From Myxococcota bacterium (GTDB lineage Bacteria > Myxococcota_A > SURF-8): a stretch of 64,000 nt of DNA. The translations under genes and the position numbers were made by a program. Shown one piece after another: positions 9,835 through 52,800 of the stretch. Each line of letters begins with the position of its first letter. Within the stretch, counting starts at the first letter, position 1. The stretch lies in NCBI GenBank assembly GCA_963674735.2, contig CAXXQS010000002.1, forward strand, positions 64,001 through 128,000. Direction: 5' to 3'. The notes below the pieces were generated by a model. The model was not told where the DNA came from, ran no database searches, and worked only from the letters and a program-made list of their open reading frames with translations.

Positions 9835-10290
9835 TGTTGATATTACGAGGTTATCCACCTGTTTTGATGGCCGTTTGCCGCCCTATTTCGACTCCAGCCA
9901 GCCGAAATCGAAAAAGTGTTGTCATATCAATGAGATAAGGGTGCAACTCTTAAATATCTTCTATATAATATATTAAATATAATTAAATTGGACACTCTGA
10001 AGACGCGTATCTCCCTTCGTTAGAACGAAAAATCGCGCTCAGGCGGTCAGCGGACGGAAGGTCTAACGTGTTGGTATTGAAAAACTATTTTTATTTTTAC
10101 GTTTATCGAACCCGCAGCGGGACGCAATGCGCCGCAGGCCGTCTGACACACTTTCCCTCTCGCCGGTGTGACGTATTACGGCAATCCTTGTTATCCGATA
10201 GGAATTGTACTTTACCCCCCGGCGCGCGGCCGAAAAACCCAATGATTTCGCGAAAACGAAAAAAGGGCTCCTGAAAACGGCGCAACGGAC
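9835..10290. repeat. Dispersed roughly 450-bp non-coding element, copy A
   Basis: Ungapped match to 52343-52800 at offset 42,508: 62/80 identity over 9901-9980 and 65/90 over 10161-10250 (hand count), including identical GGTGTGACGTATTACGGCAA. Confidence 0.85.
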
Positions 10291-10456
10291 GCATCGAGGT
10301 CATTTCAGGTATTCCGGCAAAAATCGACCTGCTCAGCCGTTTTCGTCGTTTTGGCGTTTTTCGTCCGTCGCGGCAACAGGACGAAACGGCGCAGCCAGCG
10401 CCCCAGTCGGTTCGGTGCGTTCGCGCCGGGCATTTGGCTGCACGTGTTTGTGAACA

Positions 10457-10485
10457 TTGCTCTTCCCCCGCAAACTTGCTAGAGT
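10457..10485 (+). promoter_or_regulatory. Putative sigma70 promoter for the 10521 operon
   Basis: TTGCTC-17 bp-TAGAGT with an extended TG. Confidence 0.45.
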
Positions 10486-10520
10486 GATGCAATCGGTACC
10501 GAAACGGAGAGCACGCCCCC

Positions 10521-11546
10521 ATGGCCGAGACGCCTTATATCGCCTGCCCGATTTGCAAGGGCCACACCCGATGTCGCGGGGAGCGCTACGTGAATCGACA
10601 GCCCCACGCGGCTTGTTTCACGCCCGACGATCACGTGGATATCCCCTTCCAGCTTCGCCACCTGCGGCGGCTGGCGGCGCTGGCCGGAGTGGAAACAGCT
10701 TTCGGCGACGCTTACTGGAGCCTGCTTACGGAACCGCTCGACTGGGCCCAGGGCCGTTCGTCGCGCCCCATCGAATACTCCATGAGTTTCACTCCCGACC
10801 GCGTGTCCGCCTTCCGTTTCTCGCTCGCGTATTTCGACCATCAGCCGCTTCTATTGCGCCAGGATGCCCGGCACCTGCTGGAACTGATCGCCAACGCCGC
10901 GCCCGAGCTGGCCGCCGTGGCCGAGCGCACGCTCGACGGCATCCATTCGCGGGTCGTTAAGCAGCTTCTTTACGGCGTCGATTGGCGGGCCGACGGGGGC
11001 GGCCGCCACAAATTCTACCTGCGCTTGTCCGACCGTTACCCGCAGCAGAAAGAATCCATGCTGCGTCAATTGCATCCTCTATTAGCCGATATCCCATTCA
11101 CGCGCGAACCCTTTTCGCGTACGCGTCTGGTAGGCTTCGATCTTCATGGGGACGCTCGTCCGCCCGATATCAAGCTGTATTGCCAGTACGAGACGGTGAA
11201 TATCGACGCGGCGCTGGACTTGACGAAACGACATCCGTTCATCGCCTACCTGAAACCGATGCGCCCGCTTTTGCGCGAGCTGCTGACCATCTTTCGTCTG
11301 CGCCCGGATACGCCGCCCGACCCGACCGATCCGGACGAGGTCGATTTGCACATGCTGTTCAACCGGCTTGAAACGCGCGACATCCTGCGTTTTGTGAAAC
11401 AAGCGCAACTGGCGTTTCCCCTGCGGTCGTTTATCGACCTCACCCACGACAGCGTGATCGTGCCGACCTCCGTCACCTTTCCGCGCGCGCCGCTTGCGAA
11501 AATGAATCTGTACTACCTCGCCGTGGAGCCGCGCCGTGCCGGTTGA
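10521..11546 (+). CDS. LynF/TruF/PatF-like (ABBA-fold) prenyltransferase homolog with N-terminal CxxC extension
   Basis: LLYGVDWR...HKFYLRL..YPQQ and LVGFDL.G....IKLY resemble the GxDxR...K.....YP and GFDF..G...IELY strands of cyanobactin F proteins (recalled, not searched). Confidence 0.55.
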   Translation: MAETPYIACPICKGHTRCRGERYVNRQPHAACFTPDDHVDIPFQLRHLRRLAALAGVETAFGDAYWSLLTEPLDWAQGRSSRPIEYSMSFTPDRVSAFRFSLAYFDHQPLLLRQDARHLLELIANAAPELAAVAERTLDGIHSRVVKQLLYGVDWRADGGGRHKFYLRLSDRYPQQKESMLRQLHPLLADIPFTREPFSRTRLVGFDLHGDARPPDIKLYCQYETVNIDAALDLTKRHPFIAYLKPMRPLLRELLTIFRLRPDTPPDPTDPDEVDLHMLFNRLETRDILRFVKQAQLAFPLRSFIDLTHDSVIVPTSVTFPRAPLAKMNLYYLAVEPRRAG

Positions 11547-12984
11547 CGATCTGAAAAACGGCGTCGCCCGCCGCATCGTTCTGGTCAATCCGCCGGTGGT
11601 CGCCGTCGATCGCGTGCAGCTCGATTACTATGCCGACGCCCAGCCCTACGGCCTCTTTCAACTGGCCGACTGGCTGGAAAGCCTAGGGCACGAAACCGCC
11701 CTGGTCGATCTGATGGCCTACGGCAAACACAGCCGGGGCTGGGACGATCTGCTTTCCACCGGTGAATTGACGCCTATCGCTCCTCTTGAAAGCGGCGTCG
11801 CCGGATTGAAGCTCGACGCTTGGCGCTACGGCTACGGCCTCAAACGCCTGGCCGCCTTTTTCGATGCCTATCCCGGCGAACCGGACGAAGTGTGGGTCAG
11901 CTGCTCGATGCTATTTAACGCATATTTAGCTCATGAGGCGTCATCCTATATCAAACGTCGTTACCCGAAAACGCGCCTTCGCATGGGCGGCGGCTATGCG
12001 TCGCTTTCCCCGGAACACGCGCAACAGAACGGAGCCGACGAAGTGTCGACCGGGCGTCTGCTCGACGCCGATCGCCGCCAACCCGGTACGCAGCATCTGC
12101 AACGCGACCAGCATTTCACCTTGTTTCGCTTGACTTGCGGCTGCCCGAACCACTGCGCCTTCTGCATCAACGGACGTCAGCCGCTGCACCGCTTTTCCAT
12201 CGACGATGTGTTGAACTATATCGAACGCGCGCATCGCGAAACCGGGATTCGACACTTCAACAACTGGGATCCCAACGTGCTGCGCTTCAAGCCGCACCTC
12301 AAGCGTTTTTTGCAACGCATGGCCGAACGCGATCTGGATGTGTCGCTGCGCTTCGATATGGGCTTCGAACCCGATCTGATCGACGACGAGTTGATTACCC
12401 TCTTAAAACAGGGGGGCGTCGAAGCCTTCACCATCCCGCTCGAATCCACCGATCCGCTGTTCGCCGAGTTTTTCGAGAAACCCTACACCATCGTGTCGTC
12501 GATTCGGGCGCTCGAAAAATTGAAGACGGCGGGGGTCGATCTTTCGGCTTCGCACGGCAGTTCCATTATCGGCTACCCGGAAGAAAAGCTGCGCGACCTC
12601 TTCACCCTGTATCACGTGGCGCGCCATTACCGCCTGATCTCCACGCCCTTTCCCATCGTCGTGTTGCCCCACTCCCCGGTATTCGAACGCTACCGCCGCA
12701 TCATGGAACCGCGCCCTTTCCGACGCTACAACGGACACCTCTTCCCGTTGATCGACGATAAACAGCGCCTGGGGCTCTACCGCCGCCTGATTTTATTGCT
12801 TACCGCCTCCAGCCTGGACGTTTCCGACCGGCTGATCGAGCGCTTTCCCGATGCGGTGCAGGCCGATTACGCCGCCGGAAAAACACGCGCCGAAGGCTTG
12901 ATCGAGCAGGCCTTGTCGCGTCCCCAAGCGGACAGCCTGGACTTGCTGGATGCCATTTACCGGGATCTGGATGGGGGGAGATAA
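11536..12984 (+). CDS. Cobalamin-binding radical SAM protein
   Basis: N-terminal IVLVNPP...PYGL..LA..L...GH...GGGYAS B12-binding-type domain; CPNHCAFC motif; IIGYPEE; overlaps the upstream stop. Confidence 0.88.
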   Translation: MPVDDLKNGVARRIVLVNPPVVAVDRVQLDYYADAQPYGLFQLADWLESLGHETALVDLMAYGKHSRGWDDLLSTGELTPIAPLESGVAGLKLDAWRYGYGLKRLAAFFDAYPGEPDEVWVSCSMLFNAYLAHEASSYIKRRYPKTRLRMGGGYASLSPEHAQQNGADEVSTGRLLDADRRQPGTQHLQRDQHFTLFRLTCGCPNHCAFCINGRQPLHRFSIDDVLNYIERAHRETGIRHFNNWDPNVLRFKPHLKRFLQRMAERDLDVSLRFDMGFEPDLIDDELITLLKQGGVEAFTIPLESTDPLFAEFFEKPYTIVSSIRALEKLKTAGVDLSASHGSSIIGYPEEKLRDLFTLYHVARHYRLISTPFPIVVLPHSPVFERYRRIMEPRPFRRYNGHLFPLIDDKQRLGLYRRLILLLTASSLDVSDRLIERFPDAVQADYAAGKTRAEGLIEQALSRPQADSLDLLDAIYRDLDGGR

Positions 12985-13070
12985 GCGGAGAGATGGCTCA
13001 GTTACTCCGGTGTTGGCGCGCGGCTCTCCAGGGCTAGCCCTTGACCCCTCTTGCCCTTTGCTCTTTTTGT

Positions 13071-13136
13071 TCCGCCATTCCCGCGAAGGCGGGAATCCAG
13101 GGCATGGATCCCCGGGTCAAGCCCGAAGATGACGGA
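13071..13136. repeat. Inverted pair of CGTC-type REP-like elements
   Basis: CGCCATTCCCGCGAAGGCGGGAATCCA (ATTCCC-N8-GGGAAT) and inverted CGTCATCTTCGGGCTTGACCCGGGGATCCA between convergent genes. Confidence 0.75.
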
Positions 13137-13195
13137 GGTGGCCGCAGTGGAACGCAGGGAGCGGCCCTTCGAGTCGAAAACCGCTTTTCGGCGCA

Positions 13196-13669
13196 CTATC
13201 CTTGCCTGCTTGCCAGACGTTTCTCTAATTTGACGCGCCACTCGTCGGGGATATCGGCTTTGCGGCCCCGCTCGTAATCGTAGCTGACCACCAGTGCGTC
13301 GCCGACAGCCGCGACTTTCCCTTGTTTTTCACTCACCACGATGTTTTCCATCAGAAAACGGTCCCGTTCCAGGCTGATTACGCGGGTTCCCACCCAGGCG
13401 GTATCGGGATAGGTCAGCGGAAATTTGAAGCGGCAGGACGTCCCGGCCAGGATCGGCCCGATTTTCCCGAGGCTTCCATCGCGCGTGATGGCAAGAGACT
13501 CGAAAAATGCGATGCGGGCGCTTTCGGTGTAGCGAAAATAGAGAACATTGTTGACGTGCCGGAAGGCATCCATGTCGCCCCACGCAATCGGAACCGGTAA
13601 AACGGTATCGTAATCCTGCAAGACTTCTTTCACGGAATCCGGCATCGTCGCTTGAAGCATGTCGTTCAC
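13196..13669 (-). CDS. Acyl-CoA thioesterase (YbgC/4HBT hot-dog family)
   Basis: WGDMDAFRHVNNVLYFRYTESAR motif; FKFPLTYPD. Confidence 0.93.
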   Translation of the reverse strand: MNDMLQATMPDSVKEVLQDYDTVLPVPIAWGDMDAFRHVNNVLYFRYTESARIAFFESLAITRDGSLGKIGPILAGTSCRFKFPLTYPDTAWVGTRVISLERDRFLMENIVVSEKQGKVAAVGDALVVSYDYERGRKADIPDEWRVKLEKRLASRQG

Positions 13670-15240
13670 TTTCTCTCCTCATCCTCCGAGGGTGCGGATT
13701 GCTCGTTATTTAGGCAATAATCATCCAACTCGGCCTTGTTGAAAGGCATCGAGCCGCAGGGTCGGTAGTGCGCCGCCAACCCTGCACGGACACGCGCCAC
13801 GAGTCCCGGCCGATACTGCTGAACGCGCACCGTCTCCAGAATGCGCACGCGCGTATGATTGCCGCAGGCGGCCAGCAGCTCTTCCGGTGAAGCCGAAAGC
13901 CCAACCGCGGCCACCGCGAAATGTCCTTCGGGATCGTAATAGCGCAGCAGCACCTGGGCGTGCTCGTAGAAAATCAGCGGACGATCGCCGGGCTGCGCCG
14001 TATCGGACAGGTATTTCACCGCCGCCCGCATATCCACTTTGGCGTAGCGATCTTGACTATAATGGTTGACCAACGACCAGCCGAGAACAAGCATCATTCC
14101 CAGCGCCACCCCAAACGCGACCCGACGCGGAAGCCGAACGAACGCCCCCGCCGCCAGCAACCAGAAAAACGGCAGGCCCACCAGCGCATAGCGCAGATTG
14201 AAGGGCACACTGGGAAGCAGCAGCGCGGCCAGATAGGTCAGACCCAGCGGCACAACCGCCAACAACACGGCCAAACGTAGGACGGGTTGTTTACGTTCAC
14301 GCCACGCCCAGACCGCCATGATCGCCAGCAACACAGCCAGCAGCAGTCCCGCCGCCACAAGCGCCGGACCATCCGTCTCGAAAAGACGCAGGATCGCTCC
14401 GTTGCCCAAAGAGGCCCGCAACTGACGGATTTCGGTCACGGGCGGACCGAGGGACGTCCCGACGGCGAAACTGTAAAGCGCGAAGGCGAGATCGGAGAGC
14501 CCGGTGGGCCGAACGCTGCCGATACCCATCTCGGTTTTGTTCAGAAACGCCAGCACCCGTGGCATGAAACCGACCCCGACAAACAGAAACGAAAGCGTGA
14601 AGGGAAGCCAGCGATCGAAGCGACGTCGTCCTTCCAATAAAAGGAACAGCCCGAAAGCCGCGAATAAAAACACGGAATTGAGGTAGGTCCACAAAGCGGC
14701 GCCGGCCAACACCGCCATCAAAGCCCAGTCGCGCCGACGGTTCGATTGGACCGCCACCCAGAAAGCATGGGCACTCGCCACCCCGAGCAACACCCAGAGC
14801 GCATACATGCGGGCTTCCTGGGAATACCAGATATGCAGCGGCGAAACCGCCAACAGCAACGCGGCGGCGCGAGCGGTCGGACGATCGAAGAGGCGCAAGG
14901 CAAAGAAAAACAGCATTCCCACACACAACGCGCCGAAAAGCGCCGACGGAAAACGCAAGGCCCATTCGGAGGTTCCCGCCAAACCGCAAAAGCCGTAGAG
15001 CAGCACGTGATAGAAGGGACCGATGTGGCCTTCCACCGCCCGCACGACCGCCCCCACGGAATCGGCTGAAATCTGATTGTAGATCGCGGCTTCATCCAAC
15101 CACAGGCTCTGACGGTCCAAGCCGACCAAACGGATGACCAAAGCGAACGCGCTCCAAACGCCGAACTCGATCCAGTCGGACCGTCCGTTACGTCGATTCG
15201 GGCTTTCTCCGAGCGCCAATATTTCGTCGTTTTTTTTCAC
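13666..15240 (-). CDS. GT-C glycosyltransferase family 39 (PMT/ArnT-like)
   Basis: SLWLDEA, H.GPFY, LRFPSALFG, SPLHIWYSQEARMYAL; many TM helices. Confidence 0.9.
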   Translation of the reverse strand: MKKNDEILALGESPNRRNGRSDWIEFGVWSAFALVIRLVGLDRQSLWLDEAAIYNQISADSVGAVVRAVEGHIGPFYHVLLYGFCGLAGTSEWALRFPSALFGALCVGMLFFFALRLFDRPTARAAALLLAVSPLHIWYSQEARMYALWVLLGVASAHAFWVAVQSNRRRDWALMAVLAGAALWTYLNSVFLFAAFGLFLLLEGRRRFDRWLPFTLSFLFVGVGFMPRVLAFLNKTEMGIGSVRPTGLSDLAFALYSFAVGTSLGPPVTEIRQLRASLGNGAILRLFETDGPALVAAGLLLAVLLAIMAVWAWRERKQPVLRLAVLLAVVPLGLTYLAALLLPSVPFNLRYALVGLPFFWLLAAGAFVRLPRRVAFGVALGMMLVLGWSLVNHYSQDRYAKVDMRAAVKYLSDTAQPGDRPLIFYEHAQVLLRYYDPEGHFAVAAVGLSASPEELLAACGNHTRVRILETVRVQQYRPGLVARVRAGLAAHYRPCGSMPFNKAELDDYCLNNEQSAPSEDEERK

Positions 15241-15459
15241 GTTTTTTACATTTCCATGTCAAAAAGTGCACGCAATTCGGGAAACAGCCCGTATTTTACT
15301 AAGAAAGTGGCTTCAGTGTATCCATTCCATCCATTTCCGGCCAGTCAAAAATCATGTAAAAAAGGCTTGTCAAGTTGATTTAAGCATGTTACCGTAATTT
15401 CGGCGGTTACAGAAAGTTTAGAAGTCGAGCTTTCTCCGGTAGCAAACAGGGAGTCCGTT

Positions 15460-16020
15460 GTGGCGCAATCAACAGCATCGAACAAAAAAGTCTTTACGAC
15501 GGGAGCCATCGCGCGCCTGTTCGGAATCAACATCAACACCGTCATCAAGTGGTTCGATGAAGGTAAGCTCGAAGGATTCCGGCTTCCCATCAGCAACGAC
15601 CGACGCATCCCGCTCGGCAGCCTGCGCAAATTCATGACAACGCATCAAATTCCGATGGACCTGCTCGACGATTCCACTCAGGCCCGCCGCATGTATACCC
15701 GTATCCCGATTTCCAGCCAAATCACGTTCACCGCCCAAAACGGCCACACTTACGGGCCGTACGAAGGTCATTTAAGCGATCTATCGCAAGGCGGCGCCCG
15801 TATTCTGGCGGGAGGGATCGAAGCTTTTTCCATTCCGTCGCAACAGTTCGGAATGATGATCACCGTCAAAGACGGTCCCCTGGCGGATAGTTCTTTCTCC
15901 GGCCAGGTCGTACATCTGCAACCGATGGAAGATGAACTTGCCATCGGTATGAAATTCGCCGATATCGATGCTCCCAACCAAGGCAGACTGCTGTCTTACC
16001 TCAACTCTCAGTTAAGCTGA
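15460..16020 (+). CDS. Excisionase/MerR-like HTH fused to a PilZ domain
   Basis: FTTGAIARLFGININTVIKWFDEGKL..FRLP...RRIP (HTH_17); PilZ motifs RMYTR (RxxxR) and DLSQGG. Confidence 0.88.
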   Translation: MAQSTASNKKVFTTGAIARLFGININTVIKWFDEGKLEGFRLPISNDRRIPLGSLRKFMTTHQIPMDLLDDSTQARRMYTRIPISSQITFTAQNGHTYGPYEGHLSDLSQGGARILAGGIEAFSIPSQQFGMMITVKDGPLADSSFSGQVVHLQPMEDELAIGMKFADIDAPNQGRLLSYLNSQLS

Positions 16021-16192
16021 ACCGCCCGCGCGCCCTCTCACACACTGTTTTTTATCGATAAGCTCCTTGCTGTAAGGGACTTTGGAATACTACGCCCACC
16101 AAACCGATCCATAGACATGTGAGAACAACGTGTCATGTTTGGGTGGGGTCAGGTTCCGGTCAAAAAAAAGTAGCTGACAAGCTAGGTTTTTC

Positions 16193-16220
16193 TTGACAAA
16201 TTTAGGAACGTATATAGAAT
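16193..16220 (+). promoter_or_regulatory. Putative sigma70 promoter
   Basis: TTGACA-16 bp-TAGAAT upstream of ATG 16265. Confidence 0.6.
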
Positions 16221-16264
16221 AACCACTAGATGGAAAATATAGAACCATTAGAAGGGAGTCGGAC

Positions 16265-18523
16265 ATGACACGACGAGTGATGGGATTGGCGATATTGGCG
16301 GCGGTGGCTTTCGCCCTACCGGCCTATGCCAACGTCATGAACGAAACCGCACAGGTCTGTTTTACCGATACGGACCAGGATGGGTTCAGCGAGACCCTGA
16401 CGATGGATCCTCAGCAGCATCAGATCCTCAATGCCTATCCGGACGATCCGCTCAACGATTTCAACGGATTCGACCAGGGCTGCCAGCTTCCCAAAAGCTA
16501 TGCGGAGTATCCGACTCTGAGCCTCACGGGCGAAGTTCTCTATTCGACCGATCCGCAAGTCGATCCGTGCATGAACGGCGAGCTGGAGCTTGAAAAAGAG
16601 GAGTACGAGGACGGCTACAAGCTGTTCCTGCTCGACTCGGCCACCTGCCAATACCGCATGGCGATGGAAATGGATGTTATCATTTGTATGGCGCAGTTGC
16701 AGAACTGGTGCCCTGTTTCCAAATTCGCCTTCGAGTTCACCAACGCGGAAATCGACAACTTCATCGGTTCGCCCCTGCTCGACTACTATGCCGCACAGCC
16801 GGAAACGCCCTGGAGCTGGGCTTCCGTCACCATGACGTCGACTGAAACCGCCGACTTCGGCGCTTCGATTCAAATCGGTGAGGAATTCTGCGCCGATGCC
16901 GAAATCGCCCAGTTCCCCGGCGAAGAGTGCGACGGCTGCGACGATTGCGGGATCGAGTCCAATGGCCGCATGATGACGCAGTTGGCCAAACGCCATTACC
17001 TGCGCGGTCAGGCGGCGGTATGCTCCGATCCTTCCGGTGAAGGCGTCCTGTGCGACCGTCCCATGATGCTGGCCTCGACCGACATGGCGAGCAGCAAGCT
17101 GAACCTGGCGACACTGCTTCCCGATTACGAAGCCCTCGGCCTGCAGGCGGTCCCGACCTCCCCCAGCGATCTGATCGACATCACCAACGCCAACGACGTT
17201 ATCGCGATGGATCACTTCAAGGACGGCGTGGTCAGCGGCGCAATCCTGTTGGTCGAATCGGAAGACAAAGTTTACGAACATACCAAAATCATCTGCGACC
17301 GCTTCGCCGGTCAGGTGCTCGAACTGGTCACCGATGTACGCGTCAACGACTGGACCTTCCCGATCGCCGTTTTGGCCGATCTCAACGAAGACAAACGGTC
17401 CTTCGCCGTGAGCTTCGCGGTTGCCGACAACACCGTCTTCGCCCGTTGGCTGGTTCAGGACTACCCCGAGCTTCAAGGCCGCACCGTTTATAACATCCAG
17501 CTCTGGTCCTGCTCGCTGGCGGAAACCGTTCGCCTGCTCAAGGCCGAACTGGCCCGCCTGGACGCCGTCTTCGGTTCCGTCGCCAACGGCGACGCGCCCT
17601 TCTCCAGCCGGACCCCCGAAGCCTACTTCATGGCCGCCGAAAAACGCGGGACCGACACCCTGTATATGCTCGCCGGACGTGACCGCAACGACCTGAAAGT
17701 CGAAGTGAGCTACTATCCGGAAACCGGCGACGGCAATCCGCATTTCACCACCTTGGACGTCCCGGCCGAAACCGGTCGCATCCAAGACAGCCTGCCGCCG
17801 TTCTTCGACGCCATGGCCGACCTGGTGAAGCCCGATGGAACCGTGGTCGACACCGTCTACATCGCCGACGGCGCCTTCGCCGCCTTCGACGACACCGAGT
17901 TCGGCGGTTCCTCGCTTCTGTCCTCGACCGTCAACCAGGGCTGCCAACGCGACAGCGACACGCGCCCCGGCGACTTCGTCATCACCGGCTGCGCCCAATC
18001 GCAGGGCATGGTCGACAAGTACGGCGTCATCGTCCGCGTAATGGAAGGTCCGGCCGCCCCGTACGACTTCAGCGACTACCAGGCGATCAGCTTCAGCTAT
18101 CGTTCCGACACCGAACTGGTGTTGTGCATGGAATCCAAAAGGCTCTACGGCCAGTCGCAGTCCTGCATCAACCTGCCGCCAACCGATGGCTTGAAGAAGA
18201 CCTGGATTCCCCTGGATCAGTTCCGCATCTACGGCACGGCCGACGATCCGGCGGTTCTCGACGACATCGTGGCCTTCAGTTGGAACATCTGGAACATGGA
18301 CACGATCATGGGCGGACCTCTCGCCTCCGACTTTGCGGTTGAAGGCGTCACCATGCGGGCGTCCTCGACTCCGGCGGTGGATTACAATTTCGTGAGTGAA
18401 CTGGCCAAGCCCGAAACCTTCGTGGGCTGCCAGAATAGCGATACCCCTTCTGCTTTGGCCGGTTTGCTGCTGCTGGTTCTGTTGGCGGCGCTGCGCTTTT
18501 GCAGAAAGGAGTCGGTGCGCTAA
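16265..18523 (+). CDS. Secreted acidic Cys-rich surface protein with CBM11/CIA30-like domain and MYXO-CTERM-like anchor
   Basis: Signal peptide ending AYA; DFSDYQAISFSYRS...WIPLDQF; C-terminal GCQ...LAGLLLLVLLAALRFCRK. Confidence 0.65.
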   Translation: MTRRVMGLAILAAVAFALPAYANVMNETAQVCFTDTDQDGFSETLTMDPQQHQILNAYPDDPLNDFNGFDQGCQLPKSYAEYPTLSLTGEVLYSTDPQVDPCMNGELELEKEEYEDGYKLFLLDSATCQYRMAMEMDVIICMAQLQNWCPVSKFAFEFTNAEIDNFIGSPLLDYYAAQPETPWSWASVTMTSTETADFGASIQIGEEFCADAEIAQFPGEECDGCDDCGIESNGRMMTQLAKRHYLRGQAAVCSDPSGEGVLCDRPMMLASTDMASSKLNLATLLPDYEALGLQAVPTSPSDLIDITNANDVIAMDHFKDGVVSGAILLVESEDKVYEHTKIICDRFAGQVLELVTDVRVNDWTFPIAVLADLNEDKRSFAVSFAVADNTVFARWLVQDYPELQGRTVYNIQLWSCSLAETVRLLKAELARLDAVFGSVANGDAPFSSRTPEAYFMAAEKRGTDTLYMLAGRDRNDLKVEVSYYPETGDGNPHFTTLDVPAETGRIQDSLPPFFDAMADLVKPDGTVVDTVYIADGAFAAFDDTEFGGSSLLSSTVNQGCQRDSDTRPGDFVITGCAQSQGMVDKYGVIVRVMEGPAAPYDFSDYQAISFSYRSDTELVLCMESKRLYGQSQSCINLPPTDGLKKTWIPLDQFRIYGTADDPAVLDDIVAFSWNIWNMDTIMGGPLASDFAVEGVTMRASSTPAVDYNFVSELAKPETFVGCQNSDTPSALAGLLLLVLLAALRFCRKESVR

Positions 18524-18771
18524 GCGCTAAGCCGCTCCACCGGCTTTGTACTGACAACTTTAATTTCAGGGCAAGGGAAAACTCCTTGCCCTCTCTTTAT
18601 TGGACTGGGTCGTACGCCAAAACAGCCGTTAGGGGGCAACAATGCGGTGGGGAACCCGCAAGGGGGTACGTTATGCCGTTTGGAAAAATTTTGGAAAACA
18701 GTATGGTTATGGAATACAATCAGAACGCGCGAGTTGAAGAATTCTGGTCCACACCACCTGGAGTAAATGGA

Positions 18772-22290: not shown

Positions 22291-22345
22291 TGGCGCACGC
22301 AGGATCACGTTGCCAGGAAAAGATCCTGGCTATAGGGAGCGATAG

Positions 22346-23096: not shown

Positions 23097-23102
23097 TCCA
23101 GG

Positions 23103-24572: not shown

Positions 24573-24607
24573 GATTTACTCACCAGCCGGGACGTTCCTG
24601 GGGGAGA

Positions 24608-26665: not shown

Positions 26666-26667
26666 CG

Positions 26668-34464: not shown

Positions 34465-34470
34465 GACCCC

Positions 34471-37715: not shown

Positions 37716-38019
37716 TCTTTCAGTTATTCGCCCTTCGATCGTTACGGTTGCGGGAAACGATCATTCATTTATACCGAAAAGTTCATCCCCTCCGAAAAAG
37801 CCGTCATTCCCCCTGAAAAATCCTCGTCATAACTGATGATAGAATGCCAAATATGTGCTGGCATTCCCGAAATCACGGTCAAATACAAGAATTCCGTTGC
37901 AGCTCATTCACCGTTTGGTTATTATCCTACGAATTGGAGTCATTTCGCAAGCCTTCAAAACGACGGGGCGACGTATACGGCCCCTTCGACGTTTGTAGAA
38001 ACGCCGTAAGGATTTTTCT

Positions 38020-41544: not shown

Positions 41545-41591
41545 GATTATCCTGTTCGTTAATCCCTTCCAATCCCCTAAAGGCGGCTGCT

Positions 41592-43235: not shown

Positions 43236-43351
43236 CTTTTTCCCGGCATTGCTCGAAACTCATGATGCATTTTCGGAACCTGCGAATGTCTGAGCCTCTG
43301 AAGCGCCCCTCCTATTCCTGCAATTCCATGGCGCGTCTTTGGCGGTTGCAC

Positions 43352-45370: not shown

Positions 45371-45394
45371 CAAGTTCCTTCCAAACAAACGAGC

Positions 45395-46636
45395 TTAATT
45401 CACCTTTTCCATCACGTAACGCCCAACCACCAGCGCCTGCAGCACAACCCAGAGCCAATAGAGGCGTTTGTTTTGAATGCGATCGGCCAAAGCCAGCCAC
45501 AAAACCGGCACCACCGCCAGATAATAGCGTTCCCATACATGCGGAACAAACAGCAGAATGCCCACATGCGCCAGCGCGATCAGCACATAGCGCTGACGGA
45601 TATGGCTGACGAAGAACCAGGCGATGCCGAAACCCGCCCACCAGGCGACGGTTTGCACGATGTGCAAACCCAGCACCGGAATCCCGATCTGTTTCAGCAT
45701 CAACAGGGCTTTGGGAATCACGCCGGTTACCGTATTACCGGCCAGCCCCACCGCCGCCGGATCCGCCATGTAAAGCGGTCCGGCCAGCATGTGCAGGGCC
45801 AGAAACGCGCCCAGCAACAACCACCATTTGGGCAGGTTGGTCAGGTTGTCGAGAAAGACCGGTAGAAACCACAAACCCAGGAAAATGAAAGCGAAATCCA
45901 CCTGCATCAGGTTGAGGCCGCGACTGGCGTTCCCGGCATAACCCGGCGGCGTCGTTCCGCCCCAAACCCAAATTAAAACCGCCAGCGCCGCCAACGGCAG
46001 TACGACGGCCACCCCACGCAGCCAGACACGTTTATGCGACCGGCGCGATCCGAACCGCTCCAAGAGAAAAGAAGCGGCAATCCCGACGGCGTAAGACAGG
46101 TAAAACTGGCGGCTCCAGATGGCCAGCGCCGCCGCAGCTGCATAAACCCCGAGCCACAGCGCCGAGGCACGTTCATCGCGAGAACGATCATAGGCAACCA
46201 GCGCCAGAAGTCCAAAAAAGAATGCGGGAACAAGGGTATAGAGAGAAAAAGCGCGCGCGATGAAATAGGGTTGCAGCACCATGAGCAAGAACAACAACGT
46301 GCGCCGATCCGGGGTTTCGCGCCGTGCAAGCAGCGCCAGCAACAGCACGCAAGCCGAGGCCAACAGAAGAGTCAGGAGTCGAAAGGCTACCAGGGAATCC
46401 CCGACCCACTTGCCCCAGCCCGCCCATAACCAATAGGGCACCGGTCCCGACGCCGACTCATAGCCGCTTAACGGCATACTCGGCCAATCTTTCATAAACA
46501 ACCGGATACTCGGCAAGTGATGGTGGATTTCGTCGTAATCGACCGGCTGATCCAGCCCGGTCCACCACGCCATGGCCGCCAGCAAGGCTATCAGCAAAAC
46601 CGCGGCCGCGATATGTACAAAACGTCCCCGCATCAT
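45395..46636 (-). CDS. GT-C-fold integral membrane glycosyltransferase (ALG10/PMT-like)
   Basis: YDEIHHH in the first loop, FRLL, RQ motif, ERYY; about 11 TMs. Confidence 0.7.
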   Translation of the reverse strand: MMRGRFVHIAAAVLLIALLAAMAWWTGLDQPVDYDEIHHHLPSIRLFMKDWPSMPLSGYESASGPVPYWLWAGWGKWVGDSLVAFRLLTLLLASACVLLLALLARRETPDRRTLLFLLMVLQPYFIARAFSLYTLVPAFFFGLLALVAYDRSRDERASALWLGVYAAAAALAIWSRQFYLSYAVGIAASFLLERFGSRRSHKRVWLRGVAVVLPLAALAVLIWVWGGTTPPGYAGNASRGLNLMQVDFAFIFLGLWFLPVFLDNLTNLPKWWLLLGAFLALHMLAGPLYMADPAAVGLAGNTVTGVIPKALLMLKQIGIPVLGLHIVQTVAWWAGFGIAWFFVSHIRQRYVLIALAHVGILLFVPHVWERYYLAVVPVLWLALADRIQNKRLYWLWVVLQALVVGRYVMEKVN

Positions 46637-46674
46637 TCTTCACCGAAACTCCTGAAAACACGTGAGAATATAGT

Positions 46675-46703
46675 ATTTTAGCGCATATAGCGTCCGTCGT
46701 CAA
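46675..46703 (-). promoter_or_regulatory. Putative sigma70 promoter of the 46636-39184 operon
   Basis: Minus strand TTGACG-17 bp-TAAAAT. Confidence 0.6.
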
Positions 46704-46901
46704 CTTCCAGTCAAACCTTGCGTTTGGCCGATTAGAAGGTTTTCGCAGGCTTTCTGTTCCACCATTTACTCCCTTTTCGTCGAAAAGCCCGACATAAAAT
46801 CGGAATCTGCGCTATCCTATATCGCAACAACCAATCAGGGTAATGGGACATGACGTTGAGCCAGCAGGGCAATCAACCGGCATAACGACAGGGTAAACGC
46901 G

Positions 46902-49496
46902 ATGAAACGACCTCAAGATAGTCTCTGGGTATTCCAATCGGGCTTCTCTTTTCTCGTCCTTGTTCTCGCCCTCATCGGACTCCCTCAACCCCTCGCCGCT
47001 CAGAACGACTTACCGCAGCTGGCGCCGTTGGGAGGGCCGCAAGCCCTGTCGGCGAAGGTCGAAAGTACCACTTCCAGCAGCGTGAAACTATCCTGGGACG
47101 CGATCGCCGACGCACGCGAAATCCGGGTTTCGTTCGGGCCCGAACCTTCCGATATGCCCAACACGGCCCTGCCGCTGGCGAGCAAACCGCAGAAGCTTGG
47201 CGGCCGCACCACCCAGATGACGTTGACCGGACTGGCGGCGGCCGTCGATGTGTTCATTCGCATCGAAGCCGACACCCCCAAGGGCGTCAAGTCGGCCAAC
47301 CTGCATGCGCGCACCCTGGGCGGACCCCGCGCGAAATTGGACAACGCCCTGCGCGAAGCGCACCTGATGGGGCCCTCCATTTTGATGCTGACCCTGGCCA
47401 ACGGAAAAGGCGAAAGCTGGCAAAAGGCAAACTGGTCGCTCACCCGTCTGGACGGCCGCCCCCTGCCGATTCGCCAAATCCATCGCCGCTCGATCCCGGT
47501 CGGCGCGCCCGGCTACCAGATCGGTCCCAATAAACCCACCGATGACGCACGCATGGATGTGGACCACCAGCTTTTTTTCATGCTGAGCGAGCCGGTGGGT
47601 GAAAAGGACATCCTGACGATCAAAGGTCCGCAAGGCTTACGGATTACCCTGCCCTTCTCCGACCGCTACCTGGAAACACCGGTTATCCAGGTCAACCAGG
47701 TGGGCTACAATCCGCGCGCCAAACAACGTTATGCCTATGTTTACGGGTATCTGGGCGATGGCGGGAAACTGTCGCTGAACGACTTCCCGGCGGTGGCCGA
47801 GGTGCTGGCGGAAGGAGCCAACCCCTTGTTTCCGCGCCAAGCCACACTGTCGGGCGCGCCCATCCGCCACCGCGCCACCAACGACTGGGACGCCGGAGGC
47901 GACGTCCGCGAGATCGACCTGCACAACGTCCCGGCCGCCGAGACCGTCCGCTATCGGATCCGCATTCCGGGTATCGGCGTTTCCTGGCCTACGGCTGTCA
48001 GTGAGTTGGCCGTCTTCAAAGCCTTCTACATCGCCGCACGCGGACTCTTTCACAATCGCTGGGGCGCGGAACTGACCCCCGAGGCCACCTTCTGGGCGCG
48101 TCCGGCCGCGCATACCGAGGCCTACACCGGCACGCAGACCGACTTTAACCGCATGCACCCGCCCAACACACCGAAAACCGGCAAACGACCGTTGACCGGC
48201 GGCTACCACGACGCCGGGGATTACGATCAGCGGCCGATGCACACGGTCATTCCCATGCTGCTGATGAGCGCCTACGAGCTGAATCCCTTCAAATTCACCG
48301 ACGGCCAGCTGACGCTCCCCGAAAGCGGCAACGGCATTCCCGATCTGCTGGACGAAGCCCTGTGGGGCGTCAAAGGCTGGGAGGCCCTGCAAGAACCCGA
48401 TGGCGGCGTGCGCATCGGCGTGGAATCCTACAAACACCCCTACGGAATCTATCTGGCCAACGAAGACCCGCTGCCTTACTGGACCTACGGCGTCCATCCC
48501 AACATCACCGCACGGGCGGCGGGACTCTTCGCCCAGGCGGCGCGTCTCCTGCGCAAATTCGATCCCCAACGAACGAAAGAGCTGACCGAGAAAGCGGTGA
48601 AGGCCTTCAATTACGCCCGACGCAATCAAGCGGCCCCGGCGGATATGCTGTACGCCACCGGCGAATTGCTGTTGCTTACCGGCCAGACGCCCTACCGCAG
48701 CGAATTCGATAAAGCCTGGACGACCATGGGGCCCTACGGCGCTTTCAACAAGCTGGCCCTGTTTCATCAACCGACCCCCAATGCCGTGGCGCACGCCATG
48801 GAAAACCGCAACGAGGCCTTCGCCCACGCGGATTACTTGACCGCCTACCTGGCTAGTCCCGCAGCCAGCCCCCACATCCGGGAGATCGTCCAACGCTGGA
48901 TGCCGCAGTTCATCAAGGGGATGATCGAGACGATTGCCAAGTCCCACGCCCACCGCAACGGACGGCGCTTCAAAGATCCCGTCACCTGGGGAAAAGGCGC
49001 CACCATGGGGCGTTACTCCGATACGGCCATCTTCGCCATGCGTTCCATCGGGATCGATTCGAAAACGAAACAGGATCTGTTCGACGCCATGAGCCTGAAC
49101 GCCGATTACATTCTCGGCTGCAATCCTCTGGGCATGGTGTTTTACACCGGACTCGGCAGTCGTCATCCCGAAGAACCGCTGCACCTCGATTCGTTGGCCT
49201 GGATCAAAAAAGGGAAAGGAGCGGTTCCGGGCATTCCCGTCTTCGGCCCGGTCGACGGTCCCCCGCGCGCACCCTGGTCCAAAGCGGCGGTGGATACGTT
49301 TTATCCGCCGATGCAGGAGCAACCGCTGGCGCTGCGCTACGGCGATGTGCGCACGCTGGTGCCCTGCAACGAATCGACGGTCTGGGGCGACTACGCGCCC
49401 AATATCAAGCTGTTTGCGGCGTTGATCAACTACAATATGAAGCCGCCCGATTCGTGGAAACCCGGTGGAGCCGATCAGGCCAACCCTCTCCCCTGA
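46902..49496 (+). CDS. Secreted glycoside hydrolase family 9 with CelD-type Ig domain
   Basis: Signal peptide; IQVNQVGY; GGYHDAGDY; PESGNGIPDLLDE; LGCNPLG..FYTGLG; C-terminal NEST. Confidence 0.88.
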   Translation: MKRPQDSLWVFQSGFSFLVLVLALIGLPQPLAAQNDLPQLAPLGGPQALSAKVESTTSSSVKLSWDAIADAREIRVSFGPEPSDMPNTALPLASKPQKLGGRTTQMTLTGLAAAVDVFIRIEADTPKGVKSANLHARTLGGPRAKLDNALREAHLMGPSILMLTLANGKGESWQKANWSLTRLDGRPLPIRQIHRRSIPVGAPGYQIGPNKPTDDARMDVDHQLFFMLSEPVGEKDILTIKGPQGLRITLPFSDRYLETPVIQVNQVGYNPRAKQRYAYVYGYLGDGGKLSLNDFPAVAEVLAEGANPLFPRQATLSGAPIRHRATNDWDAGGDVREIDLHNVPAAETVRYRIRIPGIGVSWPTAVSELAVFKAFYIAARGLFHNRWGAELTPEATFWARPAAHTEAYTGTQTDFNRMHPPNTPKTGKRPLTGGYHDAGDYDQRPMHTVIPMLLMSAYELNPFKFTDGQLTLPESGNGIPDLLDEALWGVKGWEALQEPDGGVRIGVESYKHPYGIYLANEDPLPYWTYGVHPNITARAAGLFAQAARLLRKFDPQRTKELTEKAVKAFNYARRNQAAPADMLYATGELLLLTGQTPYRSEFDKAWTTMGPYGAFNKLALFHQPTPNAVAHAMENRNEAFAHADYLTAYLASPAASPHIREIVQRWMPQFIKGMIETIAKSHAHRNGRRFKDPVTWGKGATMGRYSDTAIFAMRSIGIDSKTKQDLFDAMSLNADYILGCNPLGMVFYTGLGSRHPEEPLHLDSLAWIKKGKGAVPGIPVFGPVDGPPRAPWSKAAVDTFYPPMQEQPLALRYGDVRTLVPCNESTVWGDYAPNIKLFAALINYNMKPPDSWKPGGADQANPLP

Positions 49497-49617
49497 AACG
49501 GGCGACGCAAGCCGGTTGGCGCACGAGCGCAAGGTCTGCTAGGATAACGACGTTCGGAAGAAGGCGGCCGACACGCCGCTTTGATGGGAAAGTGAAAACA
49601 GGGAGCAGGTTGAGCGC

Positions 49618-50919
49618 ATGAAGATCGCGGCGTTTCTTATGGCCTTGACAATCGGTGTGCCACTGGGCGCCCTGTTTGTCCGCATGTCCCACCGTTGGGC
49701 GCGCGTGATCTTTTTCTTTATGGTACTGGTTCCGGCCCATTCCTTCAACATCAAATTCATGGCCATCGACACCTACCGCGGCGATGCACGCGGTTTCGAA
49801 GTGGATCTGGCGAACCTGCTGGCGCTGACTCTGATCGTCGGAATGGCGCTTGGCCGCCGCCGTTACGGCCGCCTGGTGTGGGTGCCCAAAGCGGCACGAC
49901 CCTTTTGGCTGTTCATCCTGATCGCCGTCATCTCCATCATCCAGTCGGAAATCCCCCTTTACGGAGTCTTCACCCTCTATCAAATCCTGTTGGGTTATCT
50001 GGCTTTCGTGGCGGCCTACAACTTCCTGCGATACCGCCCCGAAGAGATCCGGCTGGCGGTCACGGCACTGGCGGTCGCGGTGGTCGTACAGGCCTTGGAG
50101 GTGTTTTACGCCAAGTACCTGGGCGGCATCTATCGGGCGGTGGGAACCTTCTACCATCCCAACACCTTATCGCTCTACCTGGAACTGCTGGTGCCCATCC
50201 TGCTGGCGATGATCCTGCATCGCAAGACCAAGCTCAACGGGCTTTACTGGTTGGCGGTGGTGGGGGGATTGTTCGCCGTGATTTCCACCTTTTCGCGCGG
50301 CGGGCTGGCCGTTTTGGGCGGCGCGCTGGGACTGGTGCTGATGCTGTCGCTCTATCAGCGGGCCAGCGGACGCAAGGCCGCGCTTCTGGTGGTGCTGACG
50401 CTCGTGGGCTTGTTGGGCATGATCAAGGCCAGCGACACCATTATCCAGCGCTTCGAACTGGCTCCCGAATCCTCGGGGGAGGCGCGGAGCTATTTCAACG
50501 CCGCCGCGCAGGCCATCGCCAACAGCCATCCGGTGGGTTGCGGCCTCAACCACTATTCACACACGATCGGGAAACCCGAATACCAACCGTATTTCGAACG
50601 CGGCGCCGACCGATCGGGCGTGTGTCATCACATCTACTGGCTGACGGCGGCCGAAACCGGCTACGTGGGGCTGGCGGCGTTTCTCCTGTTTCTGGCCAGT
50701 TTCTATCGGGTGGCCTGGCGGCTGACCCGGGCGCGTCCCCCCAGCGATTTCAACGCCCTGGGCATGGGTATTCTGGCGGGTCTGACCGCTTTGCACCTGC
50801 ATGGTTTTTTGGAATGGATTCTGCGCCAAGGCCCTATCTGGTTGATCTTTTTCACCATCAGCGGCCTGCTGCTGGCGGCGGAGGAACACGAAAAGAAACG
50901 GAAGCAAGCGCTTCGTTAA
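49618..50919 (+). CDS. Wzy polymerase / O-antigen ligase family protein
   Basis: GTFYHPN, TFSRGG, HPVGCGLN, HHIYWLTAAETG; many TMs. Confidence 0.88.
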   Translation: MKIAAFLMALTIGVPLGALFVRMSHRWARVIFFFMVLVPAHSFNIKFMAIDTYRGDARGFEVDLANLLALTLIVGMALGRRRYGRLVWVPKAARPFWLFILIAVISIIQSEIPLYGVFTLYQILLGYLAFVAAYNFLRYRPEEIRLAVTALAVAVVVQALEVFYAKYLGGIYRAVGTFYHPNTLSLYLELLVPILLAMILHRKTKLNGLYWLAVVGGLFAVISTFSRGGLAVLGGALGLVLMLSLYQRASGRKAALLVVLTLVGLLGMIKASDTIIQRFELAPESSGEARSYFNAAAQAIANSHPVGCGLNHYSHTIGKPEYQPYFERGADRSGVCHHIYWLTAAETGYVGLAAFLLFLASFYRVAWRLTRARPPSDFNALGMGILAGLTALHLHGFLEWILRQGPIWLIFFTISGLLLAAEEHEKKRKQALR

Positions 50920-50926
50920 TTCCCCC

Positions 50927-52072
50927 TCACTCAGGCAAGAAAAAGTCGGCGCGAAGGGCGGCGTGGTCCGAATCGCCCAGGTAGATCTGGCCATCCTTGA
51001 CGACCTGCGCACTTCCGGCGATATACGCACCGCCCGCCTGTTGTCCCCAGAAAAGATGATCGATCGCCTGCGGATCTCCGCGATACGAATACGTCGCGTC
51101 CCGATCCTGGGTGAGTTCGTCGGCCACCCGCTTGAGAGCATCACCGGTTTCGAGCGCAGCGAGAGGCGGCGAGCCGGGGGTGTCGTTGAGATCGCCTCCC
51201 ATCACCACCAACGCATGAGGATAACGCCCGGCCACCGCGCTGACGATGCGGTAGGCACCTTGCGCTTCGGCCAGCCGCTGGGCGGGATCGTCGCTGGCTT
51301 TGCTTTTGAAATGCGCCGGGAAAACGATCACGCGCGTGCCGTCGAAATCGAGGTGGACTTCGGGAAACTCACGCAGAAAAGTAGTCGATCCGCCGCCGGA
51401 CAACGGCAGGCTTTCATCCCCGTGATCGATGACCGAAACCAGCTCACCGCCGCTTAAAACGGCCACGTCGAGCGACGCATCGTAGCCGGTTTCGCCGAGC
51501 ACCACCACCGGGTAACGCGGTTCGAGCCAATTGGACAGATCCTCGGCGCAACCGCGCGTCTCGATCTCCTGCAGCAGCATGATATCCGCGTTGATTATCG
51601 ATAGAGCCCCGGAAATCGCCGTGAGTCGGTCGTTGTATGCGGCGGCGCTGACCAGCGGCTCCCATTCGTCCTCGCCGCAATGGCCGCTGTCGCAGGTGGT
51701 ATTGAAAAAGCGCTTCACGTTGTAGGTTCCGATACGGATGCGTTTTTGTTCGCCATCTTGATCGCCATCGGGAACATCACCGTCGGGATCGTCGCCGTCG
51801 GGATCGTCGCCATCGGGATTATCGCCATCGGGGCTGTCGCCGTCGGGATTATCGCCGTCGGGATTATCGCCATCGGGGCTGTCGCCGTCACCGGGTAACC
51901 ACCAATCGAAATCGGAGTCGCCATCGGGAACGCTCTCGTCCAGATCGCTCTCCTGATCGCCATCGTCCCGATCCCGATCGTCGTCCTCGACGGTCGCGCT
52001 TTGTTCACACCCGCTCGAAAAAACGGCAAACAGAAGAAGTAGAGACAAAATTCGAATGAGTCGCGCTTGCAT
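50927..52072 (-). CDS. Endonuclease/exonuclease/phosphatase family lipoprotein with acidic PDGD repeat linker
   Basis: Lipobox SSGC; TYNV, LQEIE, HFKSK, GDLND, IDH, SDH; ATG 52072 with GGAGG. Confidence 0.9.
   Translation of the reverse strand: MQARLIRILSLLLLFAVFSSGCEQSATVEDDDRDRDDGDQESDLDESVPDGDSDFDWWLPGDGDSPDGDNPDGDNPDGDSPDGDNPDGDDPDGDDPDGDVPDGDQDGEQKRIRIGTYNVKRFFNTTCDSGHCGEDEWEPLVSAAAYNDRLTAISGALSIINADIMLLQEIETRGCAEDLSNWLEPRYPVVVLGETGYDASLDVAVLSGGELVSVIDHGDESLPLSGGGSTTFLREFPEVHLDFDGTRVIVFPAHFKSKASDDPAQRLAEAQGAYRIVSAVAGRYPHALVVMGGDLNDTPGSPPLAALETGDALKRVADELTQDRDATYSYRGDPQAIDHLFWGQQAGGAYIAGSAQVVKDGQIYLGDSDHAALRADFFLPE
51761..51890 (-). repeat. Coding 15-bp tandem repeat (8 x PDGD[N/S/D/V/Q])
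   Basis: Units of TCGCC[AG]TCGGG plus 4 nt inside the 50927-52072 CDS. Confidence 0.9.
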
Positions 52073-52342
52073 CAATCCTCCACTAGTATCACTTGAACCG
52101 CAGCTTCTCCGACCTTTCGCAGGAAGGTCCGGGAACCGCAAGGTATGCCGGAATACGTCGCGCCCCCGCAAGGGGTATGACGTATTTTAGCACACGCGTC
52201 AACCCGAAACCATGGCTTTCATGGAGCTGAAAAACGACGCCGAAACGGCGACACGCGTCAGCCGATCGGCCCTCGGTGCCGGATAAAGACACGGAATCCA
52301 CGGCCGGACAAGCGTAAAATCGTATCCCTATGGTCTGGAAGC

Positions 52343-52800
52343 ACGTGTTATCACAGGATAAACTTCCTGTTTGCAGGTCGTTTTCCGGCAGCCTTTCGAG
52401 GTCGAAACGCCGAAACGGGAAAAGGCCTGTGATATCAACGAACTAAGGGTGCCACATTGAAATATCTTTTATATATTATATTTAGTATATTATATAGAAT
52501 CGATTATACGACCGCTTTCGCTCGTGCGTTCACGGGAATTTAAGTTCCCGGCGCTTGTGGCTACAGCCGTCTATGCACCCGGAATAACAAACTATTTTAT
52601 GCAGGCCGGCTCGCGCCTGCCGCCGTTTGCAGCAAAGGCGCTTTCGTCCTCGGCCAGTTTATGCCGCGAACAGGTGTGACGTATTACGGCAAACCCGGAA
52701 AGTCGGTAGGAAATCGACCTGACCCCCCGATTTGACGCCGAAAAACGTAATGATTTCAACAAAGGCATCTGAAAGCGACGAAAAACGGCCGAAATGGACC
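52343..52800. repeat. Dispersed roughly 450-bp non-coding element, copy B
   Basis: Same orientation and block spacing as 9835-10290. Confidence 0.85.

Follow-up and report, generated by a model that had tools for sequence, protein, structure and literature searches.

A family of about 39 intergenic DNA modules with two conserved arms around a spacer of conserved length in a Myxococcota genome

The analysis of a 64,000-nucleotide stretch of DNA from a Myxococcota bacterium (GenBank assembly GCA_963674735.2, contig CAXXQS010000002.1, positions 64,001 to 128,000; hereafter the window) has revealed that two similar non-coding sequences found in it belong to a family, restricted to one lineage, of about 39 non-coding DNA modules of about 600 bp each. 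Each locus has kept two conserved arms and the length of the spacer between them while the sequence of the spacer was randomised, and the tolerated changes in length are of about one or two helical turns. The reading preferred here, with a probability of roughly 45%, is that the element is a phase-locked, multi-site protein-docking DNA module that would be kept by selection at each locus. In the first-pass annotation of the window the two sequences had been described as a two-copy element of roughly 450 bp. The genome actually contains 39 copies and one fragment, and the element is longer, about 580-600 bp (roughly 9820-10400 for the first copy).

Positions 9835-10290 (copy 1) and 52343-52798 (copy 2) of the window match without gaps at an offset of 42,508 bp, with 250 of 456 positions identical. 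When the same stretch was compared at 2876 other offsets, the mean identity was 24.7% and the maximum 31.8%, so that the ungapped match reported initially is real. Identity between the two copies amounts to 63 of 83 positions in block 1 (9900-9982) and 66 of 90 in block 2 (10165-10254), versus 69 of 180 in the middle region (9985-10164). The 20-mer GGTGTGACGTATTACGGCAA at the start of block 2 does not differ between copy 1 and copy 2, and the sequence TAAGGGTGC, at 9936 and 52444, lies 229 bp ahead of it in both; these two features had been read correctly and directly from the sequence. The palindrome proposed within the 20-mer is exact in its CGTA-T-TACG portion, and the remainder of it is not.

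The genome searched for further copies was that of the window itself (5.26 Mb in three contigs, C1, C2 and C3). The 20-mer, allowing up to 3 mismatches, occurs 34 times, compared with one occurrence of a reversed control, and 33 of these occurrences are inside the larger element; the exception, C1:1069821, was left out before the profiles were built. A whole-element nhmmer profile produced 38 matches covering more than 400 of the 490 model positions, together with one degraded copy (C1:2111354) and one fragment (C1:1571763), and a sequence-only model of block 2 recovered 39 copies genome-wide. The copies are intergenic, dispersed and present in both orientations, and one of them is located on the separate 198-kb contig C3. 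Family statistics given below refer mostly to the 38 copies with a recognisable 20-mer, and placement statistics to the 39 copies.

Averaged over pairs of copies, identity in the family was 0.857 in the 20-mer and 0.553 in the first 100 bp of block 2, and no pair exceeded 92% over block 2. The family-wide identity of the middle was 0.283 in register versus 0.250 out of register and, when gaps were allowed, 0.553 versus 0.544 for shuffled partners. The sole middle-to-middle similarity in the family was found between copy 2 and the copy at C1:45057 (45 nt at 82%), and blastn comparison of the 38 middles with the genome gave chance-level matches only, with no sign of a guide or antisense role. 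The length of this region is nearly constant. From a fixed column of an AT-rich box in the left arm to the 20-mer there are 199-204 bp in 33 of the 38 copies (204 bp in 15 copies, 203 in 7, 202 in 7, 201 in 2, and 200 and 199 in one each), and the five outliers, with 192, 191 and 182 bp (the last in three copies), are about 11-12 or 21-22 bp shorter. In one subfamily 11 bp are inserted between block 1 and the AT box, and the distance from TATCAAC to the 20-mer amounts to 241-243 bp in 17 copies and to 250-254 bp in 10. In the right arm, CCGAAAAAC is found 65 bp from the 20-mer in 27 of 28 copies.

The fixed spacing noticed in the window pair has therefore held across 38 copies, with rare length changes of about 11 or 22 bp. 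According to DNA-looping work, a helical turn in vivo is about 11 bp, and by this analogy the length classes would equal one and two turns. Steps of this size fit neither codons, given the jitter of ±1-2 bp, nor an RNA fold. Since a selfish copy decays evenly after insertion, the maintenance of the arms beside a randomised middle at 38 loci points to purifying selection at each locus. The earlier suggestion of a scaffold under selection rather than a decaying duplicate, based on conserved spacing around a free middle, is supported by the family (mean identity of 86% in the 20-mer and a random level in the middle).

Taking the start of the 20-mer as position 0, conservation in the family extends from about -345 to about +250 to +260, or to +298 in a three-copy subfamily, and the layout consists of two conserved arms, left and right, and between them a middle whose similarity does not exceed the random level. 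The left arm contains, in this order, motif L (CTnTGTAAC-N3/4-TTGnTATCACA), block 1 (GCCGAAA...cTGTnATATCAACGAGATAAG) and the AT box, which is 83% A+T, has the top information content of the arm and contains the near-palindrome ATATATT-T-AATATAT. The middle, of about 180 bp, has no alignable sequence except a weak motif near -103. The right arm is formed by the 20-mer, TCCGATnGGA, CTTTACCCCCCG, GGCCGAAAAACCCAATGATTTC, AAACGGCGCA and two to five 9-bp units of the GCGCATCGA type, and about 23 copies have in addition a short hairpin and a second GACGAAACGGCGCA at +215 to +250.

Copy 1 is a full element with canonical tail on the plus strand of the window (9820-10400; nhmmer match C2:73826-74308, with matches to the L, B1, B2 and T blocks), and its likeness to other copies spans -291 to +261. 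Its motif M1, which corresponds to L (..TATCC-N3-TTGATATTAC, 9824-9846, plus strand), is placed at the left edge of family conservation and is one arm of an inverted repeat, and the matrix of this motif finds it again elsewhere in the element. Block 1 (GCCGAAA..TGTCATATCAATGAGATAAGGGTGC, 9898-9950, plus strand) contains M2, the inverted partner of M1, detected by the matrix on the reverse strand. It is followed by the AT box (9953-9987), recognised from its palindrome and information content, and by the variable middle (9988-10164), defined by the family identity test, with a weak forward M-like site at about 10063-10085. Sequence alignment places block 2 at 10165-10254 on the plus strand, with the 20-mer (10165-10184), TCCGATAGGA (10194-10203), a C-run, GCCGAAAAAC and AATGATTTC, and the tail (10255-10400, plus strand; tail alignment and T-block match) shows AAACGGCGCA at 10275 and 10384, a short hairpin ahead of the second of these, and the 9-bp units.

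Copy 2 (52328-52870, plus strand; nhmmer match C2:116334-116796) has the same arms and spacing and a subfamily tail variant, with L, B1 and B2 block matches and no canonical T match, and it is similar to the copy at C2:357428 up to +197. The core of its M1 (TGTTATCACAGG, 52346-52357, plus strand) is 92% complementary to 52426-52437, within the block 1 and AT box region (52406-52495, plus strand; M2 at 52426-52445), which was assigned by alignment and from the inverted pair. The variable middle (52496-52672, from the identity tests) and block 2 (52673-52762, plus strand, by alignment), which begins with the 20-mer (52673-52692), complete the comparison.

A weight matrix of the M motif, built from 22 left-end (L) sites, produced 97 matches in the 38 copies versus 12.3 ± 4.9 in dinucleotide shuffles. 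A reverse-strand match in block 1 was obtained in 31 of 38 copies, a forward-strand match near -110 in 11 of 38 and a weak reverse-strand match near +70 in 4 of 38, and therefore the element holds up to four copies of one motif of about 22 bp, arranged as two facing pairs. Read on the opposite strand, the M motif resembles the IHF consensus, WATCARNNNNTTR, and this is a resemblance only. Judged by consensus likeness, exact matches to WATCARNNNNTTR numbered 9 in the 38 copies versus 1.5 ± 1.2 in shuffles, the left end of 22 of 38 copies agrees with 8-9 of the 9 specified positions, and M1 of copy 1 looks like an IHF site on its opposite strand. The IHF likeness pointed out initially at isolated sites thus extends to a motif that recurs across the family, and it continues to rest on consensus matching.

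The copies are also peculiar in their placement. GC skew switches once per contig in C1 and C2, which look like the halves of one chromosome of about 5.07 Mb, with the origin near C2:1.10-1.15 Mb and the terminus near C1:1.35-1.40 Mb; no relation was found between the orientation of the element and the replichore. The smallest gaps between neighbouring copies are 35.3, 38.2, 39.6, 42.5 and 47.7 kb, and a minimum as large as 35.3 kb was never attained in 20,000 random placements, with either of two null models (uniform, or limited to intergenic gaps of at least 600 bp). The coefficient of variation (CV) of the gaps was 0.64 (P 0.002-0.004). Clustering is seen in four other repeat families of this genome, whose CV is 1.35-1.44 and in which 30-44% of the gaps are below 35 kb, when compared to 0% for the element and 23% expected. 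The interval between the two copies of the window, which the first-pass annotation had regarded as a bracketed polysaccharide locus and possibly a 42.5-kb excised circle, is the fourth-smallest of 36 within-contig neighbour gaps and contains ordinary regulatory and polysaccharide genes (glycosyltransferases, Wzy, Poly_export). The copies occur in both orientations genome-wide. The bracketing is incidental, and the interval is a gap between elements like any other.

A blastn comparison with 30 relatives gave no member of the family. A sequence model of block 2 (R1) detected nothing in the rest of the order (nine genomes; the order is also the whole class), nor in 150 genomes of the phylum when stricter filters were used. 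An exact 18-mer gave 10 single chance matches in species-representative genomes, a composite pattern gave 0 matches in metagenomes, and a 17-mer gave 4 chance matches in viral contigs. One copy is flanked by NDK and radical-SAM genes that are not neighbours in the other genera of the taxonomic family, where the proteins of these two genes are 53-77% identical and synteny has been lost. The nearest available genera are so distant that the absence of the element from them dates it only to within this genus lineage, neutral DNA being saturated in any case. As regards taxonomic placement, SusD was not found, the 16S sequence would resemble a deltaproteobacterial or Desulfobacterota type, and searches by protein for the locus were uninformative.

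According to the preferred reading, the module would be an ordered array of short motifs of a protein-binding type, namely four IHF-like motifs of about 22 bp, the AT palindrome, the near-invariant 20-mer, a TCC-N4-GGA palindrome and the 9-bp units, which form two arms around a spacer of fixed length and free sequence. Both arms would be recognised jointly from the same face of the helix, where one or more sequence-specific proteins, possibly helped by an IHF-type bender, would build a looped or wrapped nucleoprotein complex. More speculatively, because the copies are at least 35 kb apart across the chromosome irrespective of the local genes, this complex may serve the chromosome rather than a neighbouring gene, and its role could be that of a topological or domain barrier or of an anchoring site. 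A further elaboration, in which the 39 modules are chromosome-wide, phase-locked nucleoprotein "staples", read by a lineage-specific DNA-binding protein and an IHF-type bender, and partition the 5-Mb chromosome into domains no shorter than 35 kb, is considered unlikely as it stands. Such staples would be barriers between topological or interaction domains and, as a side effect, would turn their surroundings into hot spots for palindromic repeats and for an insertion sequence described below.

Several observations weigh against a protein-docking module. The three copies with 182 bp may stem from a single deletion event, in which case no more than 3-4 of the length changes would be independent, and with the family found in one species only, selection is deduced from paralogues alone. 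The IHF likeness is a loose consensus match, and the protein that would bind the modules is postulated. Even spacing could reflect the target immunity of a lost transposon, and the approximately threefold higher density of other repeats nearby could mean that the elements sit in insertion-tolerant zones. In addition, the gene contexts rest partly on a crude gene caller, and a transcript without structure, or one driven by an alternative sigma factor, is compatible with the sequence data.

An old non-autonomous mobile element, similar to a MITE (miniature inverted-repeat transposable element) or a mini-transposon, is an alternative with a low probability, about that of the staples. The arms would then be the ends recognised by a transposase or recombinase, the middle a dispensable cargo, and the spacing along the chromosome a trace of target immunity, a property known from Tn7, Mu and Tn3. 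A relic of this kind would agree with a dispersed and intergenic distribution in both orientations within one lineage, with two conserved arms carrying repeated motifs and IHF-like sites, with the lack of any two copies within 35 kb, with the copy on contig C3 and with the other mobile DNA of the neighbourhoods. However, no terminal inverted repeats join the ends of the element. Their absence had been stated from the start, and it is correct for the termini and not for the interior of the left arm, where M1 and M2 form an inverted pair about 74 nt apart (9824-9846 with 9921-9943 in copy 1, 52346-52357 with 52426-52437 in copy 2). Target-site duplications were not detected either, the longest flank match averaging 5.82 within copies versus 5.83 for mismatched flanks, although with fuzzy ends very short duplications could escape.

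No partner of such a mobile element was found in the genome either. Matches to the L, B1, B2 and T blocks are almost all inside the 39 elements, the few strays being isolated L or T fragments; no block match flanks a gene, and no autonomous or cargo-bearing version was found in this genome. A Tn3-type transposase was likewise not found in it, and the rve-type open reading frames (ORFs) are only 307-375 aa long and far from the elements. Moreover, the middles are saturated and no block-2 pair is above 92%; an inserted selfish copy would be expected to decay evenly, and not to keep its arms next to a randomised middle at 38 loci. A MITE or other non-autonomous transposon of classical type has consequently been rejected on the basis of inverted repeats, target duplications and an autonomous partner, none of which was detected in this genome. 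All 12 rve-type (integrase-core) transposase matches were observed in a single stretch, C1:0.89-2.04 Mb, at a distance from the elements.

An independent transcription unit is somewhat less probable than a mobile relic. The AT box would be its promoter and the product would be an RNA whose 5' part is specific to the copy and whose 3' part (block 2 and tail) is common to all, or else a short peptide starting at the ATG of AATGATTTC. The AT box does contain TATAAT-like hexamers, copy 2 has one sigma-70-like site (GTGCCA-17-TATATT, score 9/12), the elements stand apart from the neighbouring genes, and several copies translate as MISRKAK..KRR.ERIERI from the ATG. By contrast, copy 1 has no promoter-like site, the -35 region is not conserved in the family, and neither a terminator pattern nor covariation was found. 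The frames from the conserved ATG are inconsistent across copies, with lengths from 6 to 100 codons, the ATGATTTC motif in which this ATG lies is missing in 11 of 38 copies and has GTG instead of ATG in 7 of the other 27, and no ORF recurs consistently in the ORF map. The indels of 11 and 22 bp, together with the 1-2 bp jitter, do not fit codons or an RNA fold, and an even chromosomal spacing is not expected of RNA genes.

The search for RNA structure was negative throughout. No Rfam match was obtained in the window at the gathering threshold, and the single match at a relaxed threshold was at chance level (E = 0.41). RNAalifold returned an empty consensus structure for three segments on both strands, and the folding energies of these segments did not depart from shuffled sequences (mean z from -0.64 to +0.41, both strands); no signal of stable hairpins was detected by folding energy, only short local palindromes being present. 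Complementarity was roughly equal within copies (956) and across copies (920), with no long-range one that was copy-specific, and a 29-nt complementarity noticed in copy 2 was discarded because it does not recur in the family. The non-coding RNA reading mentioned in the initial description is thus not supported.

A promoter or 5' leader of the downstream gene was also rejected, as no fixed orientation to a gene was observed. With a gene caller made for this analysis, which is crude, the downstream gene was convergent in 25 of 39 copies, and once one over-extended ORF had been reclassified, the contexts were 15 convergent, 6 divergent, 8 co-directional and 10 anti-directional. At 16 of the 29 loci checked with Pfam, the downstream gene was confirmed to be on the opposite strand, and four contexts were confirmed as convergent on both sides. 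The flanking genes are diverse housekeeping genes with no common theme. A complex promoter, another of the original suggestions, therefore finds no specific support, since 25 of 39 copies face the 3' end of a convergent gene.

The neighbourhoods of the elements are rich in other repeats, which occupy 18.1% of the intergenic bases within 10 kb of an element and 5.6% elsewhere, the elements themselves being excluded (the 10-kb zones represent 15.2% of the genome). The palindrome ATGGGCAAC-NN-GTTGCCCAT, similar to repetitive extragenic palindromes (REP sequences), has 40 sites in the genome versus 0 for the control, and 29 of these sites, or 20 of 28 site clusters, are within 10 kb of an element (0 of 20,000 simulations). 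An IS110-family element of about 1.19 kb (DEDD_Tnp_IS110 and Transposase_20 domains) is present in 8 identical copies with 311-aa transposases that are 100% identical; all 8 are inserted beside REP-like palindromes and 7 of them within 8 kb of an element. Its transposase was the only protein family that stood out as shared among neighbourhoods. Insertion of IS110-type elements into REP sequences is a known behaviour, according to a previous report (PMC1525189). The elements may create repeat hot spots, or they may merely share tolerant zones with the other repeats.

These associations, together with a XerC/D-like integrase gene located 90 bp from one copy, could be explained if the element served for recombination or integration, or if it passively marked plastic zones (attachment-site-like sequences or hot spots), including an excisable 42.5-kb segment, but this is improbable: only 1 of 11 integrase-family (Phage_integrase) matches adjoins an element, copies in direct orientation have no identical stretch longer than 20 bp in common, the 42.5-kb interval has ordinary contents, and neither the G+C content of the neighbourhoods (57.9% versus 56.0% in the genome) nor the composition step across the elements (median 0.026 versus 0.019 in controls) is that of AT-rich foreign islands. 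An attachment or integron-type site was rejected because of the single adjacent integrase, and a plasmid- or phage-type origin or packaging site, also put forward initially and without specific support, was rejected given the housekeeping neighbours and the lack of similarity beyond AT tracts (blastn matches at E = 0.05 among 50,697 phage records and nothing among 72,556 plasmid records).

Some additional features of the repeats were recorded. The REP-like palindromes are often paired about 47 bp apart, as in C1:44529-44595 and C2:1074221-1074279, and none was seen in the window. The window contains two direct repeats of 233 nt (501-733 and 1321-1552), 820 bp apart and 97% identical, that belong to a family with 22 blastn matches in the genome at 1e-8 and 37 at 1e-6, 31 of the 37 being within 10 kb of an element. 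Another repeat, MITE-like and rich in hairpins, measures about 130-180 bp and is found, for example, at C2:2081034-2081216, just after the tail of one element. It comprises families X and Y, one sequence in opposite orientations, with about 50 copies at 85-96% identity; of its 51 matches, 24 are located less than 10 kb from an element. Family Z, the third, is represented by 14-17 copies.

Both copies in the window are located between divergent genes, and the flanking gene calls agree with their initial assignment to divergent intergenic gaps. The genes upstream, on the minus strand, are an HlyD-family gene for copy 1 and an Exo_endo_phos gene for copy 2. Downstream, on the plus strand, copy 1 has a 341-aa ORF and then a B12-radical-SAM gene, and copy 2 has a lipoprotein-like ORF and then an ARMT1-like gene. 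The 341-aa ORF, directly 3' of copy 1, has no Pfam match and overlaps the start of the B12-binding radical-SAM gene (10521-12984), and both may constitute an uncharacterised two-gene unit. About ten tandem 15-bp units of the GTCGCCATCGGGATT type at 51746-51947 are inside the minus-strand ORF 50927-52171 and form the N-terminal part of the Exo_endo_phos-family protein, so that they are a coding pentapeptide repeat. A stretch of 39 nt is 74% identical between 17700-17738, in a 752-aa ORF without Pfam match, and 53280-53318, in the lipoprotein-like ORF downstream of copy 2, and possibly encodes a shared protein motif.

Dispersed intergenic repeats of bacteria are mostly short hairpins or decaying mobile elements. 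The family described here combines long composite arms at about 39 loci, a spacer of conserved length and free sequence that changes length only by steps of about 11 bp, mutual avoidance along the chromosome and the attraction of other repeats to its neighbourhood. No element like this one was found described in the portions of the literature consulted, which is weak evidence of novelty. If the modules were docking sites that structure the chromosome, they would offer a sequence-defined handle on how bacterial chromosomal domains are set, and if they were domain barriers, they would be a dedicated, sequence-defined domain-boundary element in a bacterium. Should they be relics of a target-immune transposon, they would provide an unusually clear genomic footprint of immunity.

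Among known systems, the family belongs to the broad kind of dispersed intergenic mosaic repeats, and it fails the tested hallmarks of MITEs, REP sequences and bacterial interspersed mosaic elements (BIMEs), structured RNAs, gene leaders and attachment sites. The Correia elements of Neisseria and MITEs are dispersed intergenic repeats, and some of them contain an IHF site that is functional; terminal inverted repeats, target duplications and a near-uniform divergence are characteristic of MITEs, and none of these was seen in the element. BIMEs are arrays of 40-300 bp made of GC-rich hairpin units and present in hundreds of copies. Work on BIMEs and repetitive IHF-binding palindromic (RIP) elements describes enterobacterial REP-IHF elements as intergenic, multi-copy mosaics, with REP sequences as targets of IS110-type elements (PMC2817692, PMC1525189, PMC3333891). 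The module is similar to them in being an intergenic, multi-copy mosaic of short motifs including an IHF-type site, and BIMEs are thought to act on DNA topology or the nucleoid. It differs in its size of about 600 bp, in the lack of a hairpin signal, in a spacer of about 200 bp fixed in length with free sequence, and in having about 39 copies that repel one another, and a separate REP-like family in the same genome behaves differently.

The lambda attP intasome, the fim switch, the ends of Mu and Tn7 and the looped operators of lac and ara bring multiple sites together with IHF-type bends and depend on helical phase. The in-vivo looping periodicity of about 11 bp in such assemblies agrees with the 11- and 22-bp length classes of the element, but they are single loci tied to a recombinase or an operon, and the element has 39 copies without an associated gene. 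The sites of MatP (matS), ParB (parS), Noc and SlmA are sequence-specific, repeated along the chromosome and independent of local genes, as the modules would be. Those sites are palindromes of 13-16 bp confined to or excluded from one region, whereas the element is a 600-bp composite distributed over the whole chromosome and an extra contig.

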